Sequence record: NC_019767.1
Reading direction: 5' to 3' (one strand)
DNA length: 40,155 bases
Source: Escherichia phage HK544
Each line of letters opens with the position of its first letter. Positions within the stretch are counted from its first letter, which is position 1. This document shows, piece after piece, positions 3,979-39,414 of this stretch. The notes under the pieces were generated by a model. It saw only the letters and a list, made by a program, of their open reading frames with translations. It did not search any database and was not told the DNA's origin. Made by a program: the position numbers and the translations under genes.

Positions 3979-5136
3979 ATGTCTGAACTCGCTCTCATTC
4001 AAAAAGCTATCGAAGAATCCCAGCAGAAAATGACCCAGCTTTTCGATGCGCAGAAAGCAGAAATCGAAAGCACAGGCCAGGTTTCCAAACAGTTGCAGTC
4101 CGACCTGATGAAAGTACAGGAAGAGCTGACCAAATCCGGCACTCGCCTCTTCGATCTGGAACAGAAACTGGCATCCGGCGCTGAGAATCCTGGTGAGAAG
4201 AAATCCTTCTCTGAACGGGCTGCTGAAGAGCTTATTAAGTCATGGGACGGTAAACAGGGCACCTTTGGCGCTAAAACGTTTAACAAGTCACTAGGCAGTG
4301 ACGCTGATTCGGCTGGCTCACTGATCCAGCCTATGCAGATCCCAGGCATCATCATGCCAGGCCTGCGCCGTCTTACCATTCGTGATCTGCTGGCTCAGGG
4401 CCGCACTTCCAGTAACGCTCTGGAATATGTGCGTGAAGAGGTGTTTACCAATAACGCCGACGTGGTGGCAGAGAAAGCACTGAAGCCAGAATCGGATATC
4501 ACCTTCAGCAAACAAACCGCGAACGTGAAGACCATCGCGCACTGGGTGCAGGCATCACGTCAGGTGATGGATGATGCGCCAATGCTTCAGTCCTACATTA
4601 ACAACCGCCTCATGTACGGCCTGGCACTGAAGGAAGAGGGCCAGCTGCTGAACGGCGACGGTACCGGGGATAACCTGGAAGGGCTGAACAAAGTGGCAAC
4701 CGCCTATGACACCTCGCTGAATGCCACCGGCGACACCCGCGCTGACATTATCGCTCACGCTATTTATCAGGTGACCGAGTCTGAGTTCAGCGCTTCCGGT
4801 ATCGTCCTGAACCCGCGCGACTGGCACAACATCGCGTTGCTGAAAGACAATGAAGGCCGCTATATCTTCGGTGGTCCTCAGGCATTCACCAGTAACATCA
4901 TGTGGGGCTTGCCAGTGGTTCCGACTAAGGCGCAGGCCGCCGGCACCTTTACCGTAGGCGGTTTCGATATGGCCTCACAGGTCTGGGATCGCATGGATGC
5001 CACCGTGGAAGTTAGCCGTGAAGACCGCGATAACTTCGTGAAAAACATGCTGACCATCCTGTGCGAAGAGCGTCTGGCGCTGGCGCATTATCGCCCGACA
5101 GCAATCATCAAGGGCACCTTCTCTTCTGGCTCATGA
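3979..5136 (+). CDS. major capsid protein (HK97 fold) with N-terminal coiled-coil delta/scaffold domain
   Basis: 385 aa; N-terminal roughly 100 aa is strongly coiled-coil (QKAIEESQQKMTQLFDAQKAEIES...), followed by a capsid-like body; followed by a strong intrinsic terminator. Confidence 0.8.
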   Translation: MSELALIQKAIEESQQKMTQLFDAQKAEIESTGQVSKQLQSDLMKVQEELTKSGTRLFDLEQKLASGAENPGEKKSFSERAAEELIKSWDGKQGTFGAKTFNKSLGSDADSAGSLIQPMQIPGIIMPGLRRLTIRDLLAQGRTSSNALEYVREEVFTNNADVVAEKALKPESDITFSKQTANVKTIAHWVQASRQVMDDAPMLQSYINNRLMYGLALKEEGQLLNGDGTGDNLEGLNKVATAYDTSLNATGDTRADIIAHAIYQVTESEFSASGIVLNPRDWHNIALLKDNEGRYIFGGPQAFTSNIMWGLPVVPTKAQAAGTFTVGGFDMASQVWDRMDATVEVSREDRDNFVKNMLTILCEERLALAHYRPTAIIKGTFSSGS

Positions 5137-5141
5137 TGGAG

Positions 5142-5165
5142 GGGGCGGGGAAACCCGCCCTTTTA
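5142..5165 (+). terminator. rho-independent terminator after the major capsid gene
   Basis: GGGCGGG-GAAA-CCCGCCC hairpin followed by TTTTAA. Confidence 0.55.
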
Positions 5166-5169
5166 ACGT

Positions 5170-5496
5170 ATGGCGATAGATGTTCTGGATGTAATTTCCC
5201 TCAGTCTGTTTAAGCAGCAGATTGAGTTTGAGGAAGACGACAGGGACGAGCTGATCACGCTGTACGCCCAGGCCGCTTTTGACTACTGCATGCGCTGGTG
5301 CGATGAACCAGCATGGAAGGTTGCGGCTGATATTCCTGCCGCCGTTAAGGGCGCCGTTCTGCTTGTCTTTGCTGACATGTTTGAACACCGGACGGCACAA
5401 AGCGAAGTGCAGCTTTATGAGAATGCAGCCGCCGAACGCATGATGTTCATTCATCGCAACTGGCGCGGTAAAGCCGAATCAGAGGAGGGCTCCTGA
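5170..5496 (+). CDS. head-tail connector protein (gp6-like)
   Basis: 108-aa ORF immediately after capsid; conserved order of head completion genes. Confidence 0.5.
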   Translation: MAIDVLDVISLSLFKQQIEFEEDDRDELITLYAQAAFDYCMRWCDEPAWKVAADIPAAVKGAVLLVFADMFEHRTAQSEVQLYENAAAERMMFIHRNWRGKAESEEGS

Positions 5497-7422: not shown

Positions 7423-7809
7423 ATGTCGCAAACTTTAAAACAATTAGCCATGGCGAAAATGGCTGGCTTTCGCCATAAGACGGTCGTTGTCCCTGAGTGG
7501 GAAGGTGTCAAAGTGGTTCTCCGTGAGCCGTCAGGTGAAGCCTGGCTGCGCTGGCAGGAGGTGGTGAAAGGGGGGGGCGACGATGAAAATGTGTCGGTAT
7601 CGGAAAAGGCGCACCGTAATCTTTGCGCTGACGTGGTGCTCTTCATTGACGTTCTGTGTGACACCGATAAGCAACCGGTATTCAGCGTAGACGAAGAAGA
7701 GCAGGTGCGTGAAATTTACGGGCCAGTGCACTCACGTCTGCTCAAACAGGCGCTTGACCTGATCAACAATGCGGACGAAGCGCGGGAAAAGTCTCAACCC
7801 CCGGCGTAA
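7423..7809 (+). CDS. tail assembly chaperone (lambda G-like)
   Basis: 128-aa ORF between major tail protein and tape measure; acidic; followed by an overlapping -1-frame ORF (G/G-T arrangement). Confidence 0.65.
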   Translation: MSQTLKQLAMAKMAGFRHKTVVVPEWEGVKVVLREPSGEAWLRWQEVVKGGGDDENVSVSEKAHRNLCADVVLFIDVLCDTDKQPVFSVDEEEQVREIYGPVHSRLLKQALDLINNADEAREKSQPPA

Positions 7810-11983: not shown

Positions 11984-12738
11984 GCTTAAACGCAGACTAT
12001 CAGAAGCTTGAATCCGGAAACGATGTTCGTCTGATTGAGGTGGACGGTTCTTCCTTTGGGCTAACGGACGTTCTCCGCTTTCACAATTACCGCATTCCCC
12101 ACACGGAAGCGGAAATCATCGCCGCTGGTGGGGATGAGTCCAAGCTTCCGGCGAAACCAATCTGGTGGCAGGGAAATGAATACGCCGCCTGGCCGTATCA
12201 GCTGGAAGGCCTGGAAAAATCAACCAGTGGGAGCAATGCAACGCCATCACTGACGGTTGCGAACATCGAAAGCTCTATTTCTGCCATGTGTCTTGCGTAT
12301 GACGATCTGCTGCAGGCGAAAGTCACTATTCACGACACAAAAGAGAAATATCTCGATGCCAGAAATTTCGCGGACGGCAACCCCACAGCAGACCCGACTC
12401 AGGAAAAGCTGCAGGTCTGGTATATCGACGGGAAAACTGGCGAGCTTGCCGGTGAAACCGTTGAATTTGTTCTGTCCAGCCCGATGGACCTGCAGGGGCA
12501 AATGATCCCGACGCGACAGCTTCATTCCCTGTGTACCTGGTGCATCCGGAATAAATATCGTACCGGCGACGGCTGCGACTATGCCGGCACCCGCAATTTC
12601 GATAAAAACAACAACCCGGTAAGCGATCCGTCGCTGGATGAATGCAATGGCACGCTGACGGCCTGCAAACTCCGATTCGGCGAAAATAACGAACTCTCGT
12701 TTGGTGGCTTCCCGGGCACGTCTTTGATCAGGAGTTGA
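11980..12738 (+). CDS. minor tail protein (lambda L-like)
   Basis: 252 aa, ATGA overlap with M; Cys-rich C-terminus (CTWC...C...C) as in lambda gpL. Confidence 0.65.
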   Translation: MSLNADYQKLESGNDVRLIEVDGSSFGLTDVLRFHNYRIPHTEAEIIAAGGDESKLPAKPIWWQGNEYAAWPYQLEGLEKSTSGSNATPSLTVANIESSISAMCLAYDDLLQAKVTIHDTKEKYLDARNFADGNPTADPTQEKLQVWYIDGKTGELAGETVEFVLSSPMDLQGQMIPTRQLHSLCTWCIRNKYRTGDGCDYAGTRNFDKNNNPVSDPSLDECNGTLTACKLRFGENNELSFGGFPGTSLIRS

Positions 12739-17889: not shown

Positions 17890-18192
17890 ATGGCTTATGG
17901 AATACAGACCTGGGATGCTTCAGGAAAACCCAACAACTATGGCATCAAACCCGTTTCCGTCGTTGGGCGAATACAGCTGGCTGCCGGGCAAACCTCCGGC
18001 AGCTGGTCTTTTACGGTGCCCTCAGGAATGAAAGTTGGTTTTGTTCTTTCACTTGATGAAGGAGGTAACAGCGTAGGGCGGCGCATTGTCGCGTCAGGGA
18101 GCACAATAACCGTAAGCGCTGCATCTTCTGTAGGTCTGGGTAATTATCCGGCCTCAAAGTGTGAAGTGGTCGTTTTCATGGAGAAAGCATAA
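17890..18192 (+). CDS. hypothetical protein downstream of J (likely tail-associated)
   Basis: 100 aa, start 2 nt after J stop; shares a WD(A/S)SGK motif with the next ORF. Confidence 0.4.
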   Translation: MAYGIQTWDASGKPNNYGIKPVSVVGRIQLAAGQTSGSWSFTVPSGMKVGFVLSLDEGGNSVGRRIVASGSTITVSAASSVGLGNYPASKCEVVVFMEKA

Positions 18193-23851: not shown

Positions 23852-24235
23852 TTAGAAGGGAATTGAATTGTCGTATTCAGGATGATTTTGATGATTGCTA
23901 CTTTGCTGCTGTTGGCTGTTTCCTGAGGTTGCAAATCCAATCTTTGCATTCAGTAATTCAAGAGTGATTGATTGACCATTTTGCCCCTGATAAACATCAA
24001 CCCTGATGTTTTCTCCGGTAATTTCTACAATGCCACCTTCAACAAGAACACTACGGTAGTAATCCGCTTGCGCTCCCGGCTTGGCAAATACAACGGCGCT
24101 GTAGTTTGTCCATTCTTTCTTTTTTGTCTGGCGATCGTAATACTGAACGCCAGCACGGATGTTGAATCCGATATTTTCCCCGGCCTGAAACTCTCTTGCG
24201 GGCTTGTTTAGTCTTACAGTAATCGAATGTGCCAT
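23852..24235 (-). CDS. ssb: ssDNA-binding protein-like (OB fold with C-terminal IPF tail)
   Basis: 127 aa from MAHSITV...; C-terminus ...EYDNSIPF resembles the acidic DDDIPF tail of bacterial SSB; TAATG overlap with erf stop. Confidence 0.5.
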   Translation of the reverse strand: MAHSITVRLNKPAREFQAGENIGFNIRAGVQYYDRQTKKKEWTNYSAVVFAKPGAQADYYRSVLVEGGIVEITGENIRVDVYQGQNGQSITLELLNAKIGFATSGNSQQQQSSNHQNHPEYDNSIPF

Positions 24236-24840
24236 TAAGCAGCCGCTCCTTCTAATTCGTCTCGTCTGATGTTGTAAACGTCCTGCGCTTTGTGCTGCTC
24301 CGGTGTGCCTTCGAGCATCTTCCACGCTTTGGCGAACGCCTGTTTAAGCTCTTCTACGGTGTTTTTCTGCATTGCTGCGTCAGTGAATGCTTTTAGAACC
24401 TGTTCAGGTGTAGGTGATGGTTTTGATTGCTTTGCTGCTGCGTTCTGCTGATGTTTATGCTCGTCTGTATCTGCATCTTTCGCATCATCAATGCCGAATA
24501 AACCATTGAGGCAATACTTGCGTGCATAAGAGCTTGTAGCTCCCGTAACTTGTGCAGAATCCATTCCTTTCTTGCTTTCTTCCTCTCGTGCAAGAGCGGT
24601 TGCCGTATGACTGTTTTCGCCATCGGTAATAGTTGCCGTGGCTTTCACGTAATACCGATCACCAATCAACACAACTTCATCGCTGATTGATAAAAACAGG
24701 CCATTCAGTAACGGCTTAACACCCTCAAGAATGTCTTCGCAGCTTCTGTATTTATATTTGCCGAATGAGTTATATTGATTCTTTGGCGCGTTCAGATTCT
24801 CCTGAATAGCTGCCAGTCTTGCGTAAAATTCTTTGCTCAT
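24235..24840 (-). CDS. erf: Erf-family ssDNA annealing recombinase
   Basis: 201 aa from MSKEFYARL; motif ATSSYARKYCLNGLFGIDD resembles P22 Erf-type proteins; paired with SSB-like gene. Confidence 0.65.
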   Translation of the reverse strand: MSKEFYARLAAIQENLNAPKNQYNSFGKYKYRSCEDILEGVKPLLNGLFLSISDEVVLIGDRYYVKATATITDGENSHTATALAREEESKKGMDSAQVTGATSSYARKYCLNGLFGIDDAKDADTDEHKHQQNAAAKQSKPSPTPEQVLKAFTDAAMQKNTVEELKQAFAKAWKMLEGTPEQHKAQDVYNIRRDELEGAAA

Positions 24841-25389: not shown

Positions 25390-26358
25390 TTAGTAGGTTA
25401 TTTTTGTTGCGAATACTTCGCCTTTTACGATGGCTGTTATGATATTTTTAGCAACATCTTCTGATGCACCAACCTTGATAAGGTCAGCAAGTATTTTGTT
25501 ATTTACTTCTTTCCGGTGCGCTTTATCCTTTGCTCTACGCTCTTCTTCTTCCTTGATTCTTTTTTCTTCTGCTATTCTGGCTTGCTCTTTTGCTTCAGCA
25601 TCGCGACGGATTCGTTCAGCCTCCTCCTGTGCTTTTCTGCGTTCTGCTTCAATTGCTGCCTGCTTTTCTCTTTCAGCTCGTTCTGCTGCCTCTTTTGCTT
25701 CGCGCTGTGCTCGCTGCTCGGCTTCAATGCGTTCACGCTCTGCACGTTCCGCTGCGGCCTTAGCTTCTGCTTCTCGCCTTGCTGCTGCTTCAATTTCGGC
25801 TTTTGCCTTTGCTTCGGCTTCTGCTCTGGCTTTCTCTTCAGCTTCTCTTTTTAAGCGTTCTTCATGCTCTCGCTTTTCCTGCTCCGCTTTGAGTCTTGCC
25901 TCTTCTCTTTTGCGGTCAAATTCGCGATCCATCAAAATAGCTATTTCATGGTCAGACTCAATTTGCTTTGCGAGAGCTTCAGCTGCTGCCTTAGCTTCTT
26001 CTTCGGCTTTAATCCGCGCCTGTTCTTCCTCATAATCAGTAAGAGGCTGGCGCGCCTTGGCTTTCAGTTCATCAAGGCGATCACGCACTGTCTTGCGGTT
26101 GGCATCAATTAGCTTTGGAATTTCCTTCAGTTCAGCAACAAGGTCTTTGCCAAGACCATCGAGATATGTTTTCGTCTGCGCAACTTTATACGCCAGAGAA
26201 GCGATCTCCTTTCTGCCCTTTGCCGTTGTGATATCAGGCACAAAGGACATAACTTCACGTTCAACCTTTTGAAGGATTTCTTCAATCTGGTCTGCAGACT
26301 GAAATACAGTCATTGCATTTGCTTTTTCAATAACAACTAAATCTGTTACTTCACTCAT
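25390..26358 (-). CDS. coiled-coil protein with long low-complexity Ala/Glu/Lys/Arg repeat region
   Basis: 322 aa from MSEVTDLV (SD GGAGGA); central roughly 150 aa is (A/E/K/R)-rich repetitive coiled-coil; function unknown. Confidence 0.5.
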   Translation of the reverse strand: MSEVTDLVVIEKANAMTVFQSADQIEEILQKVEREVMSFVPDITTAKGRKEIASLAYKVAQTKTYLDGLGKDLVAELKEIPKLIDANRKTVRDRLDELKAKARQPLTDYEEEQARIKAEEEAKAAAEALAKQIESDHEIAILMDREFDRKREEARLKAEQEKREHEERLKREAEEKARAEAEAKAKAEIEAAARREAEAKAAAERAERERIEAEQRAQREAKEAAERAEREKQAAIEAERRKAQEEAERIRRDAEAKEQARIAEEKRIKEEEERRAKDKAHRKEVNNKILADLIKVGASEDVAKNIITAIVKGEVFATKITY

Positions 26359-26370
26359 ATATCCTCCGTC

Positions 26371-26398
26371 AAAAAAAACTGCCCTCACACTGGAGGGC
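26371..26398 (-). terminator. intrinsic terminator in the leftward operon (tL-like)
   Basis: On the - strand: GCCCTCCAGTGTGAGGGC hairpin followed by TTTTTTTT, directly upstream of the coiled-coil gene SD. Confidence 0.45.
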
Positions 26399-26534
26399 AA
26401 AGAAGATTTCCAATAATCAGAACAAGTCGGCTCCTGTTTAGTTACGAGCGACATTGCTCCGTGTATTCACTCGTTGGAATGAATACACAGTGCAGTGTTT
26501 ATTCTGTTGTTTATGCCAAAAATGAAGGCCACCA

Positions 26535-26735
26535 TCAGGCAGCCTTGTTGTTCTGTTTACCAAGTTCTCTGGCAATCATTGCCGTCGTTCGTATTGCCCA
26601 TTTATCGACATATTTCCCATCTTCCATTACAGGAAACATTTCTTCAGGCTTAACCATGCATTCCGATTGCAGCTTGCATCCATTGCATCGTTTGAATTGT
26701 CCACACCATTGATTTTTATCAATAGTCGTAGTCAT
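26535..26735 (-). CDS. ral: restriction alleviation protein Ral
   Basis: 66 aa, MTTTIDKNQWCGQFKRCNGCKLQSEC...; matches lambda Ral as I recall it; position just downstream of N. Confidence 0.65.
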   Translation of the reverse strand: MTTTIDKNQWCGQFKRCNGCKLQSECMVKPEEMFPVMEDGKYVDKWAIRTTAMIARELGKQNNKAA

Positions 26736-26813
26736 ACGGATAGTCCTGGTATTGTTCCATCACATCCTGAGGATGCTCTTCGAACTCTTCAAATTCTTCT
26801 TCCATATATCACC

Positions 26814-27140
26814 TCAAATAAGTGGTTTGCTGCCTAATTTCATTTTCTGGCGACCAACACAAGTCACACCCATTTCACTGCGTGGCTTGCTGTACCATGT
26901 GCGCTGATTCTTGCGCTCAATACGCTGCAGGTTGCTTTCAATCTGTTCGTGGTATTCAGCCAGCACCGTAAGGTCTATCGGATTCAGTGCGCTTTCTACT
27001 CGTGATTTCGGTTTGCGATTCAGCGAGAGAATAGGGCGGTTAACTGGCTTTGCGCTTACCCCAACCAACAGGGGATTTGCTGCTTTCCATTGAGCCTGTT
27101 TCTCTGCGCGACGTTCGCGGCGGCGTGTTTGTGCATCCAT
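26814..27140 (-). CDS. N: antitermination protein N
   Basis: 108 aa, MDAQTRRRERRAEKQAQWKAANPLL... Arg-rich motif; near-identical to lambda N as recalled. Confidence 0.9.
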   Translation of the reverse strand: MDAQTRRRERRAEKQAQWKAANPLLVGVSAKPVNRPILSLNRKPKSRVESALNPIDLTVLAEYHEQIESNLQRIERKNQRTWYSKPRSEMGVTCVGRQKMKLGSKPLI

Positions 27141-29491: not shown

Positions 29492-29701
<210 letters not shown>

Positions 29702-30294: not shown

Positions 30295-31102
30295 GTTAGC
30301 TGATTACAGACCTCAACTGGAGGTCGTGGAGCATCGCGTGGCAGATACCGAAGATGGTTTCATGCGCGTTGCTAACGAGATTACCGACAGTCTGCTGATG
30401 GCTGATTTAACCGTCCGGCAGATGAAGGTGATGCTCGCTATCATGCGCAAGACATACGGATTCAATAAGCCGATGGATCGACTCACAAACACGCAGATAG
30501 CAGCCATGACAGGTATTCATCACACTCATGTTTGCGCTGCCAAGCGCCAGCTTATTGAGCGTAAATTCCTCATTGCTGATGGCGTGAAAATCGGAGTGAA
30601 CAAGGTGGTTTCTCAGTGGATTAGCCATGACAGCTTAACATTAGCTAAAACAGCTAATAAAACATTAGCCAAGTCGGCTAATGGGTATAAGCCAAGTCAG
30701 CTAAACACAAAAGACAATATACAAAAGACAATAAATACAAATACCCCCTTACCCCCTAGCGGGGGCGGCGATGGGCAGGTTAAACCTGAACGTCGCAAGG
30801 CAGAACGCATCGACTACGAATCCTTCCTGAACGCCTACAACACCGAAGTCGGTGACAGACTGCCACACGCTGTTGCGGTCAACGAGAAACGCAAACGCCG
30901 CCTGAAGAAAATCATCCCGCAACTGAAAACGCCAAACGTGGACGGTTTCAGAGCGTATGTCAGGGCGTTTGTACATCAGGCCAAGCCGTTTTACTTCGGA
31001 GACAACGACACGGGCTGGACGGCAGATTTTGATTACCTGCTGAGGGAAGACTCGTTAACGGGAGTTCGGGAAGGGAAGTTTGCAGACAGGGGGATTGCAT
31101 GA
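30281..31102 (+). CDS. replication initiator (lambda O-like N-terminal domain)
   Basis: 273 aa; segment [33 protein letters not shown] resembles the lambda O N-terminal region as recalled; internal iteron array; C-terminal half differs from lambda O. Confidence 0.7.
30621..30745. repeat. candidate replication origin: four palindromic 17-18 bp iterons plus AT-rich tract inside the O-like gene
   Basis: TTAGCCATGACAGCTTAA, TTAGCTAAAACAGCTAA, TTAGCCAAGTCGGCTAA and TAAGCCAAGTCAGCTAA at about 20-24 bp spacing, then ACACAAAAGACAATATACAAAAGACAATAAATACAAATAC. Confidence 0.5.
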
Positions 31103-34252: not shown

Positions 34253-34421
34253 CCCATCCCAATCCCTTCAATACCAGAAAGAAAGCGTCGAGCGGGCATT
34301 AACGTGCGCTAACTGCGGTCAGAAGCTGCATGTGCTGGAAGTTCACGTGTGTGAGCACTGCTGCGCAGAACTGATGAGCGATCCGAATAGTTCAATGTAC
34401 GAGGAAGAAGACGATGGCTAA
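34245..34421 (+). CDS. ninF: NinF
   Basis: 58 aa, [58 protein letters not shown]; matches lambda NinF as recalled; below ORF-track cutoff; overlaps ninG start. Confidence 0.75.
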
Positions 34422-35025
34422 ACCAGCGCGAAGACGATGTAAAAACGATGAATGTCGGGAATGGTTTCACCCTGCATTCGCCAATCAGTGGTGGTGCTCT
34501 CCAGAGTGTGGAACCAAGATAGCACTCGAACGACGAAGTAAAGAACGCGAAAAAGCGGAAAAAGCAGCAGAGAAGAAACGACGACGAGAGGAGCAGAAAC
34601 AGAAAGATAAACTTAAGATTCGAAAACTCGCCTTAAAGCCCCGCAGTTACTGGATTAAACAAGCCCAACAAGCCGTAAACGCCTTCATCAGAGAAAGAGA
34701 CCGCGACTTACCATGTATCTCGTGCGGAACGCTCACGTCTGCTCAGTGGGATGCCGGACATTACCGGACAACTGCTGCGGCACCTCAACTCCGATTTGAT
34801 GAACGCAATATTCACAAGCAATGCGTGGTGTGCAACCAGCACAAAAGCGGAAATCTCGTTCCGTATCGCGTCGAACTGATTAATCGCATCGGGCAGGAAG
34901 CAGTAGACGAAATCGAATCAAACCATAACCGCCATCGCTGGACTGTCGAAGAGTGCAGGGCCATCAAGGCGGAGTATCAGCAGAAACTCAAAGACCTGCG
35001 AAATAGCAGAAGTGAGGCCGCATGA
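34414..35025 (+). CDS. ninG: NinG (Rap) recombination endonuclease
   Basis: 203 aa, [33 protein letters not shown]...; near-identical to lambda NinG as recalled. Confidence 0.9.
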
Positions 35026-35228
35026 CGTTCTCAGTAAAAACCATTCCAGACATGCTCGTTGAAGCATACGGAAACCAGACAGAAGTAGCACGCAGACTGA
35101 AATGTAGTCGCGGTACGGTCAGAAAATACGTTGATGATAAAGACGGGAAAATGCACGCCATCGTCAACGACGTTCTCATGGTTCATCGCGGATGGAGTGA
35201 AAGAGATGCGCTATTACGAAAAAATTGA
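35022..35228 (+). CDS. ninH: NinH
   Basis: 68 aa, [37 protein letters not shown]...; matches lambda NinH as recalled. Confidence 0.85.
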
Positions 35229-35871: not shown

Positions 35872-36491
35872 GACTCGAAAGCGTGGCTAAATTTCATTCG
35901 CCAAAAAGCCCGATGATGAGTGACTCACCACGGGCCACGGCTTCTGACTCTCTTTCTGGTACTGATGTGATGGCTGCTATGGGGATGGCGCAATCACAAG
36001 CCGGATTCGGAATGGCTGCATTCTGCGGTAAGCACGAACTCAGCCAGAACGACAAACAAAAGGCTATCAACTATCTGATGCAATTTGCACACAAGGTATC
36101 GGGGAAATACCGTGGTGTGGCAAAGCTTGAAGGAAATACTAAGGCAAAGGTACTGCAAGTGCTTGCAACATTCGCTTATGCGGATTATTGCCGTAGTGCC
36201 GCGACGCCGGGCGCAAGATGCAGAGATTGTCACGGTACAGGCCGTGCGGTTGATATAGCAAAAACAGAGCAGTGGGGGAGAGTTGTTGAGAAAGAATGCG
36301 GAAGATGCAAAGGCGTCGGCTATTCAAGGATGCCAGCAAGCGCCGCATATCGCGCTGTAACGATGCTAATCCCAAATCTTACTCAACCCACCTGGTCACG
36401 CACTGTTAAGCCGCTGTATGACGCTCTGGTGGTGCAATGCCACAAAGAAGAGTCAATCGCAGACAACATTTTGAATGCGGTCACACGTTAG
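35868..36491 (+). CDS. Q: late antiterminator Q
   Basis: 207 aa, [34 protein letters not shown]...; matches lambda Q as recalled; ATGA overlap with ninI. Confidence 0.95.
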
Positions 36492-38866: not shown

Positions 38867-39414
38867 TGGCAAACGCAAAACTGCGTTATCGGAAAAATCA
38901 AAGCATTACGAGAACTGAGCAACAGCTATCCATTACAAAGCCCATCTACGGGTGGGCTTGATAATGAAACCGGAATTTATTCTGGGCAACCAGTTACGGC
39001 AGTACAGCGAAACAACCCAAGCCAGTAAGTGGGGAAATAACACTGGCAGCCACTGAAAGATGAACCTCCAGCCTTATGGCAAAAAAGATTCTTTGTGGTG
39101 GCGGACTGATGGAAAGACATCCTAATTTCAGCCAAACATTGAAGGAGTTGTTATGTCAGCAGAAGGTTTCAATAACCCATCAAAATTCCGGGATGAGTGG
39201 GATAGCAGCGTAAAGAGTAAGTGATGCCATCACAAAAGCCATTCCCTACAGAGTGGCTTTGATAATGGCTTATACCCTACACGGGATAACTTAACTGATA
39301 TCCCTTTTAACGGATAAACGGAGCCAACAATGGCAGAGATTATTCCCATGACTGAAGAACAGAAATTCCAGTTAGAGATTTACAAACTGGTCATGAACCA
39401 GAACGCCGCCGTGC

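Follow-up and report, generated by a model that had tools for sequence, protein, structure and literature searches.

The perfect 9-bp inverted repeat at positions 26461-26488 of the window, by which the whole stretch of 40,155 nt analysed here is meant (Escherichia phage HK544, NC_019767.1), is part of an unusually stable RNA hairpin on the minus strand, the sense strand of the pL operon. A comparison of about 270 related loci shows that this hairpin is conserved at its position as a structure and not as a sequence in all of them except HK022. It probably serves as an RNA boundary and processing stem-loop for the small RNA PreS, and would also cap the upstream ral mRNA. The first-pass annotation had suggested that the repeat could be either an operator-like protein-binding site or an RNA hairpin affecting terminator readthrough. 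Only the RNA hairpin is retained from this interpretation, while the operator and the effect on readthrough are not, and the most likely function of the repeat changes because the interval contains PreS (LPR1), whose annotated 5' end coincides with the 3' base of the hairpin.

The inverted repeat in the leftward operon

The phage in the window is lambda-like, and its pL operon on the minus strand has the order N (27140..26814), orf28, ral (26735..26535), an intergenic stretch and, from 26358, a gene similar to Sf6 gene 33. The restriction-alleviation gene ral (26535..26735, minus strand) encodes 66 AA and carries the hairpin in its 3' UTR, and its stop codon ends 75 nt before the +1 position of PreS. 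The intrinsic terminator tL2a (26371..26400, minus strand) is formed by the stem UUGCCCUC..GAGGGCAG at 26400..26379 and a U8 tract at 26378..26371; the homologue of 26400..26371 is named tL2A in the Sf6 record. The Sf6 gene 33-like gene (25390..26358, minus strand), with an ATG at 26358..26356 and the Shine-Dalgarno sequence GGAGGA, occupies the place of lambda ea10. The repeat was therefore correctly placed between ral and the leftward terminator, with the ral stop codon on one side and a tL2a-type terminator on the other.

The interval from ral to tL2a shares 97-99% identity with lambda and with many lambdoid, Stx-converting and P22-like phages (hundreds), and among 5,426 complete E. coli genomes, 2,239 carry the segment comprising PreS and the hairpin. 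No annotated feature underlies the segment match in the RefSeq records among those listed, and the lambda reference records J02459, NC_001416 and V00638 contain no annotation in this interval. Another stem-loop, detected in the terminator scan, spans the ral stop codon (26525..26546, minus strand). It has 9 bp, is followed by CAUUUUUGG and looks like a weak terminator. Its homologue is annotated as a rho-independent terminator in the mEp234 record; the stem-loop is not known to belong to the classical lambda tL terminators. Just upstream of the hairpin, the A-rich tract AUAAACAACAGAAUAAACAC (26495-26514, minus strand) contains several A-R-N triplets. These seem to resemble Hfq distal-face binding motifs, and the tract is limited to the lambda/ral context. 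Further upstream, the gap between N and orf28 is only about 8 nt (26805-26814), in contrast to about 680 bp with the opposite-strand gene sieB in lambda (34357-35037). The C-terminal third of N in the window is presumably unlike that of lambda N.

The arms of the repeat, GTGTATTCA (26461-26469) and TGAATACAC (26480-26488), are exact reverse complements separated by the 10-nt spacer CTCGTTGGAA, as the first-pass annotation had reported. Counting perfect 9-bp inverted repeats with a spacer of 3-20 nt over the whole window gave three, compared to 2.27 ± 1.66 expected from 200 dinucleotide-preserving shuffles, and a perfect 9-bp repeat by itself is not above chance in a window of 40 kb. The other two are located at 7450-7476 and 29630-29653. 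A repeat finder lengthens the arms to 22 nt with 82% complementarity and 4 nt in between (26451-26472 and 26477-26498). The feature was thus under-described, as it comprises an RNA stem of 14 pairs and outer helices beyond the 9-bp arms.

In the minus-strand RNA, the core hairpin (26459..26490), obtained by folding and from the covariation of 28 distinct haplotypes, has 14 contiguous pairs, including two G·U pairs, between the 5' arm CUGUGUAUUCAUUC (26490..26477) and the 3' arm GAGUGAAUACACGG (26472..26459), which enclose the loop CAAC (26476..26473). Its predicted free energy is -17.7 kcal/mol, compared to -13.1 kcal/mol for the plus strand, on which the two G·U pairs become C·A mismatches, and the 32-nt core reaches a z-score of -6.6 against shuffles. 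In the lambda/ral context, the helix extends to 26451..26498 (minus strand) with 22 helical positions, arranged as 3 bp, a 1x1 loop, 3 bp, a 1x1 loop and 14 bp. The lower 3+3 bp use nt 3-5 and 7-9 of PreS and are not conserved in other upstream contexts. The fold energy, which the first-pass annotation had proposed as a check, confirmed a stable structure: at -24.2 kcal/mol, the 48-nt hairpin ranks 6th among 26,740 windows of 48 nt from both strands (mean -8.8, sd 3.9 kcal/mol). Stretches that fold as well or nearly as well are found at 30751-30798(+), 5128-5175(+), 12103-12150(+), 35896-35946(-), 39223-39270(-) and 17959-18021(+). The existence and unusual stability of the hairpin are evident from these values, and the feature belongs to the RNA of the minus, pL-sense strand. 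It does not qualify as an intrinsic terminator, since its AU-rich stem is followed by GAGCAAUGUCG instead of a U-tract and it is absent from the terminator scan. A search of the whole window against Rfam 15 at the gathering score gave no matches, and the sole matches within 26300-26850 at E<=10 had E-values of about 1 or worse, with nothing relevant among them.

PreS and the conservation of the adjacent hairpin

PreS is an Hfq-dependent sRNA of lambda that is encoded between ea10 and ral and has its 3' end at tL2a (10.1101/2024.10.31.621285; PMC12197685). It was studied by Silverman, Nashef, Bruner, Noy and Melamed (bioRxiv 10.1101/2024.10.31.621285; published version Mol Cell 85:4678, 2025) and is described there and in a 2025 review (PMC12197685) as LPR1, renamed PreS. 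Bands of about 88 and 68 nt are observed in the lytic cycle only, and the sRNA activates the translation of dnaN and supports phage DNA replication (10.1101/2024.10.31.621285). Its Hfq-bound expression and the regulation of dnaN are reported for no phage other than lambda. The homologue in the window (26372..26459, minus strand, 88 nt) starts with GAGCAAUGUCGCUCG and ends in the U-tract of tL2a. It was assigned to the PreS locus by its sequence homology from GAGCAAUGUCGCUCG to the tL2a U-tract and by its position in the pL operon. Agreement with lambda PreS extends from nt 1 to the end of the terminator stem and covers the published pairing segment; the only differences are 2 nt (AG vs GA) between stem and U-run and a longer U-run.

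The 5' end of PreS used here is derived from the authors' constructs, their numbering and the northern size. Their lpr1 deletion arm P969 ends with ...GAGTGAATACACG (...CATTCCAACGAGTGAATACACG) (Table S5, 10.1101/2024.10.31.621285), and their T7 and cloning primers (P1103, P810) start lpr1 at GAGCAATGTCGCTCG (GAGCAATGTCGCTCGTAACT) (10.1101/2024.10.31.621285). The published alaS-pairing segment, nt 42-56 of PreS (Supplementary Fig. S3E of the preprint), corresponds to GAUUAUUGGAAAUCU at 26404..26418 (minus strand), which is largely single-stranded in the predicted fold of PreS. Therefore, +1 is the G of GAGCAAU at window position 26459 (lambda 34011). The distance from 26459 to the terminator U-tract is 87-89 nt, in agreement with the 88-nt band, and the sRNA is predicted to be 88-89 nt long. 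Since G26459 is also the last paired base of the 3' arm of the hairpin, the repeat represents a stem-loop abutting the 5' side of PreS. For the first nucleotides of PreS, RNAalifold predicts an invariant mini-hairpin of their own, GAGC/GCUC, in which nt 1-4 pair with nt 11-14.

The text of the preprint (10.1101/2024.10.31.621285) does not mention a hairpin, a stem, cleavage, RNase E or RNase III, nor does it address the definition of +1 or the formation of the 5' end. As far as this text shows, the hairpin is an undescribed flank of an already described sRNA, although processing or stabilising stem-loops are of a familiar kind. It lies outside the sRNA as defined by the authors and ends at their +1, and the published full deletion of lpr1 retains it.

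To collect related loci, IMG/VR, GTDB genomes and metagenomes were scanned with the first 19 nt of PreS. This pattern was used in place of an exact tL2a pattern, for which an earlier scan of IMG/VR had returned four loci. The sample is not biased towards the hairpin because the 19-nt pattern excludes it. A PreS-like body and a terminator were required, after which about 270 loci were left. All of them except HK022 have a stem of at least 10 bp that ends 0-3 nt before the PreS +1. In the stem of HK022, a mosaic junction has left a remnant of 6 bp and PreS is kept, which means that a phage can be viable with less than the full stem. Some exact matches of the 19-mer were located on low-coverage contigs of unrelated GTDB bacteria (Shewanella canadensis, Pseudomonas spp., Neobacillus, Oceanobacillus, Pseudoxanthomonas, Kitasatospora and others). 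A number of the contigs have the length of lambda, about 48.4-48.5 kb, and the matches look like contamination of the assemblies with lambda control DNA.

The stems sort into five alleles with unrelated sequences: A (lambda), CUGUGUAUUCAUUC-CAAC-GAGUGAAUACACGG; B (mEp043), UAUAGCAGAUU-UACG-AGUCUGCUAUG; C (ES18), UAAUGCGGAUUCUGUGAUUCCGCAUUG, in which a U·U mismatch interrupts the stem; D (BTP1), UAAUGACCAUU-UUAAU-AGUGGUCAUUG; and E, from one IMG/VR contig, UUAUCGACUUUC-ACA-GAGAGUCGAUAG. Covariation was assessed on a MAFFT alignment of the 28 distinct haplotypes in structural register. Paired cells amounted to 93.6%, compared to 65.6% in shuffles (reached in 0 of 500), and both partners had changed in 10 of the 14 pairs (106 cells). 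The covariation score of 0.661 contrasts with 0.172 for shuffled alignments and 0.06-0.135 for slid controls. Independently, RNAalifold recovered nine of these pairs, each with compensatory changes. Compensatory substitutions at homologous positions, the mark of a conserved RNA structure, are thus present. All loop columns vary, and most changes in the stem keep the pairing while few break a pair. Within allele A, U·G is replaced by U-A, C-G or G·U, and three transitions from U-A to U·G were observed; within allele B, there is a double change from A-U to U-A. The apical pairs A-U, U·G and U-A are almost invariant.

Alleles A, B, D and E contain G·U pairs, and the sense fold is more stable than the antisense fold in all five alleles. 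Taken at the level of sequence comparison, these patterns show a selected RNA structure on the pL-sense strand. The RNA hairpin suggested by the first-pass annotation is thereby strongly supported: five unrelated stems occupy the same position, their changes are compensatory, and the G·U pairs can form only in the pL-sense RNA. The hairpin is also predicted in the full precursor of every allele. Allele A is found behind many different, unrelated upstream genes, and allele B occurs with both E. coli-type and Salmonella-type PreS. Because alleles A and B reassort across upstream genes and PreS types, the hairpin is under selection wherever PreS is. In all alleles, a fixed 0-3 nt separate the hairpin from the PreS +1, whereas its spacing from the upstream stop codon varies between about 4 and more than 90 nt within allele A. 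Across the compared loci, this shows that the position of the hairpin is tied to the PreS +1 and not to the upstream stop codon.

The ends of the upstream genes have a peculiarity of their own. Unrelated upstream proteins (...MRCE, ...FVECE, ...KFVSE, ...LKARE and ...ELPNE) share a final Glu codon and stop (GAA-TAA or GAG-TGA) followed by GCAC, with the stop 4-5 nt before the hairpin and 32-34 nt upstream of the PreS +1. Since unrelated proteins share these elements, the conserved module begins inside the last codon of the preceding gene. The PreS homologue of P22-like Salmonella phages is longer, at about 103-107 nt, and has an insertion and a different sequence at the E. coli seed region, for which reason its targets may differ. 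In phage BTP1, the CDS BTP1_033 ('hypothetical protein') is annotated across the PreS homologue and the hairpin; this CDS was probably called in error over an RNA gene.

Probable release of PreS at the hairpin and alternative explanations

The inverted repeat is the DNA image of a stem-loop in the early leftward (pL) transcript, located in the ral 3' UTR against the 5' end of PreS. In the mechanism that we consider probable, PreS would have no promoter of its own, and an endonuclease would free it from the pL read-through transcript by cutting at the 3' foot of the hairpin, in the linker of 0-3 nt before the GAGC/GCUC mini-hairpin. The hairpin may define, position or delimit this cut, and may insulate the folding of PreS from whichever gene lies upstream. 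After the cut, the stem would remain on the 3' end of the upstream (ral) mRNA and block 3'-to-5' exonucleases. No conserved -10-like element was found at the would-be position of a PreS promoter among the five alleles, nor did the promoter scan find a sigma-70-like promoter on either strand of the interval. Excision from the pL transcript is suggested because the structure is tied to +1 and the variable 3' arm contains no conserved -10 element, and it agrees with PreS appearing only when pL is derepressed. Against this mechanism stand HK022, which has PreS with only a 6-bp hairpin remnant, and the fact that a stem merely stabilising the upstream mRNA would give the same comparative signature.

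The geometry of the hairpin gives conflicting indications of the nuclease. A staggered cut that yields G26459 in the lambda/window context would have its dyad about 10 positions above the bottom of the helix and 12 below its top, with a G-C pair among the two positions enclosed by the implied cuts. RNase III binds about 22 bp, needs a mostly paired helix of about 20-22 bp at the cut and in vivo favours G-C between the cuts (PMC6212723), so the predicted helix of 22 positions with a cut near its dyad would fit this enzyme. However, the in vivo rules for RNase III fit the geometry of allele A in the ral context and not that of alleles B-E. These alleles and the other upstream contexts provide 11-13 stacked positions, and stems of 11 bp are short for RNase III. 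Elsewhere the lower helix is absent, which would favour a nuclease specific for single strands, RNase E or another, cutting where the two helices meet. This junction, between ACACG and GAGCAAU, lacks the AU-richness typical of RNase E sites. The 68-nt form would begin in GUAACUAAACAG, which is predicted to be fully unpaired and by appearance looks like an ordinary RNase E site.

A more far-reaching version of the processing mechanism, which we regard as rather doubtful, treats the stop codon, hairpin, PreS and tL2a as a portable 3'-UTR sRNA cassette behind unrelated early genes. The nuclease that liberates PreS from the antiterminated pL transcript would recognise its target by the hairpin, and in the lambda context this enzyme would be RNase III, centred on the PreS +1. 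The rapid turnover of the stem, set against the near-invariant apical A-U/U·G/U-A pairs and the invariant 5' end of PreS, would then reflect selection and not drift, for example escape from antisense RNAs of resident prophages. As a separate observation, the Rac sRNA KilS of E. coli K-12 (NC_000913.3 1418405-1418502, minus strand) contains CGACAUUGCUGUGUGUA, of which 16 of 17 positions pair, one of them as G·U, with the hairpin/PreS junction UACACGGAGCAAUGUCG of allele A. By blastn, the match is 15/17 with an E-value of 0.024 in a very small search space. The counts of KilS are very low in the RNA-seq expression table of the PreS study, and the complementarity could be due to chance.

Another possibility is that the hairpin is a 3'-end protective stem for the upstream message only and has no part in making PreS, the cut occurring independently. 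This is compatible with most of the data: many loci have the upstream stop (GAA-TAA) 4-5 nt before the hairpin, the usual place of a 3' stabiliser, and the hairpin lies outside the accumulating 88- and 68-nt species. However, ral in lambda and in the window already has its own stem-loop at the stop codon (26525-26546), the hairpin being located 75 nt downstream and abutting PreS, and the fixed spacing to the PreS +1, as opposed to the variable distance to the upstream stop, is not what a mere mRNA stabiliser would lead one to expect. For this reason, the explanation is considered unlikely, albeit plausible. Modulation of transcription at tL2a by pausing, altered termination efficiency or N-dependent readthrough is very improbable, although the hairpin precedes the tL2a stem by 59 nt on one and the same transcript and PreS depends on some termination at tL2a, even though polymerase modified by N normally reads through terminators. 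The effect on readthrough proposed in the first-pass annotation finds no support in the structure, as there is no U-tract after the hairpin and no alternative pairing between hairpin and terminator in the predicted fold of any allele. Moreover, the stems differ completely between alleles while the terminator is unchanged, and the hairpin is unlike nut/boxB.

Explanations at the level of DNA have hardly better prospects. The homologous stretch is labelled 'bsq4; boundary sequence' in the Sf6 record (about window 26381-26493, PreS and hairpin), homology between phages breaks at 26459, 26482, 26493, 26503 and 26512, and boundary sequences have been proposed as recombination linkers, according to the citation of Clark et al. 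(2001, HK620) in PMC3029335. A recombination element such as a cruciform, or an operator-like site for a dimeric protein, nevertheless has a slight chance at best. Compensatory changes that preserve only the pairing, conserved G·U pairs that are C·A on the other strand and the more stable sense fold argue for selection on RNA, and mosaic junctions beside a conserved functional RNA are to be expected anyway. A protein site would keep its half-site sequence and a recombination linker its sequence identity, but the stem has neither. The earlier proposal of an operator-like site was abandoned on the same grounds, because the arms are wholly different among the five alleles and their complementarity alone is kept. 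Finally, it is highly improbable that the repeat belongs to the promoter region or 5' part of an independently transcribed sRNA, or to a plus-strand antisense RNA like RalA of Rac. The positional analogy is that the antitoxin sRNA RalA lies on the opposite strand just downstream of ralR. However, no DNA homology was detected by blastn between the interval and the Rac ralA region, which speaks against a RalA-type antitoxin sRNA, and RalR and Ral share only 24% identity over 37 residues. Independent transcription conflicts with the dependence of PreS on pL derepression and with the lack of a sigma-70-like promoter on either strand, the would-be -10 falling into the variable 3' arm without a shared TAnnnT. 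The anti-sRNAs AgvB and AsxR of EHEC prophages were also rejected as counterparts, as they are located at the PR' moron site and not here.

Relation to known systems and significance

RNase III processing hairpins that stay on the upstream RNA are found at the R1.1-type sites of the T7 early region and at the N-leader and sib sites of lambda. The hairpin described here would resemble them in its predicted 22-position helix with 1x1 internal loops and a candidate cut near the dyad, but it differs in that most other contexts lack the lower helix and the stems of alleles B-E are short. PreS is also comparable to type II 3'UTR-derived Hfq sRNAs such as CpxQ, SroC and CisR (PMC13250501), which likewise originate from the end of a 3' UTR and share the terminator of the mRNA. 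As in this class, no promoter of its own was found for PreS and a shorter processed form is present. However, the release of type II sRNAs is usually the work of RNase E cutting in single-stranded, AU-rich sequence, whereas the annotated 5' end of PreS is found at the base of a stable hairpin, where two helices meet in a G-rich junction. In Sf6 (AF547987), bsq4 (24156-24268) is homologous to about 26381-26493 of the window (97% identity), that is, to PreS and the hairpin up to its 5' foot. It is annotated as a conserved recombination linker, in contrast to the RNA gene with a structured flank found here, whose hairpin sequence is unrelated in other phages.

PreS is among the first phage-encoded Hfq sRNAs shown to reprogram the host, which it does via the activation of dnaN. 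How it is produced from a terminator-resistant transcript made with N is not explained in the text of the preprint. The practical bearing of the hairpin is modest and concerns how prophage sRNAs are annotated and how constructs for deleting or expressing PreS are designed. Because a conserved hairpin is located at the exact 5' end and no conserved promoter element is present, the biogenesis of PreS becomes directly testable. In addition, the 'boundary sequence' bsq4, long held to be a recombination linker between phage modules, would turn out to be a functional RNA gene with a structured flank.
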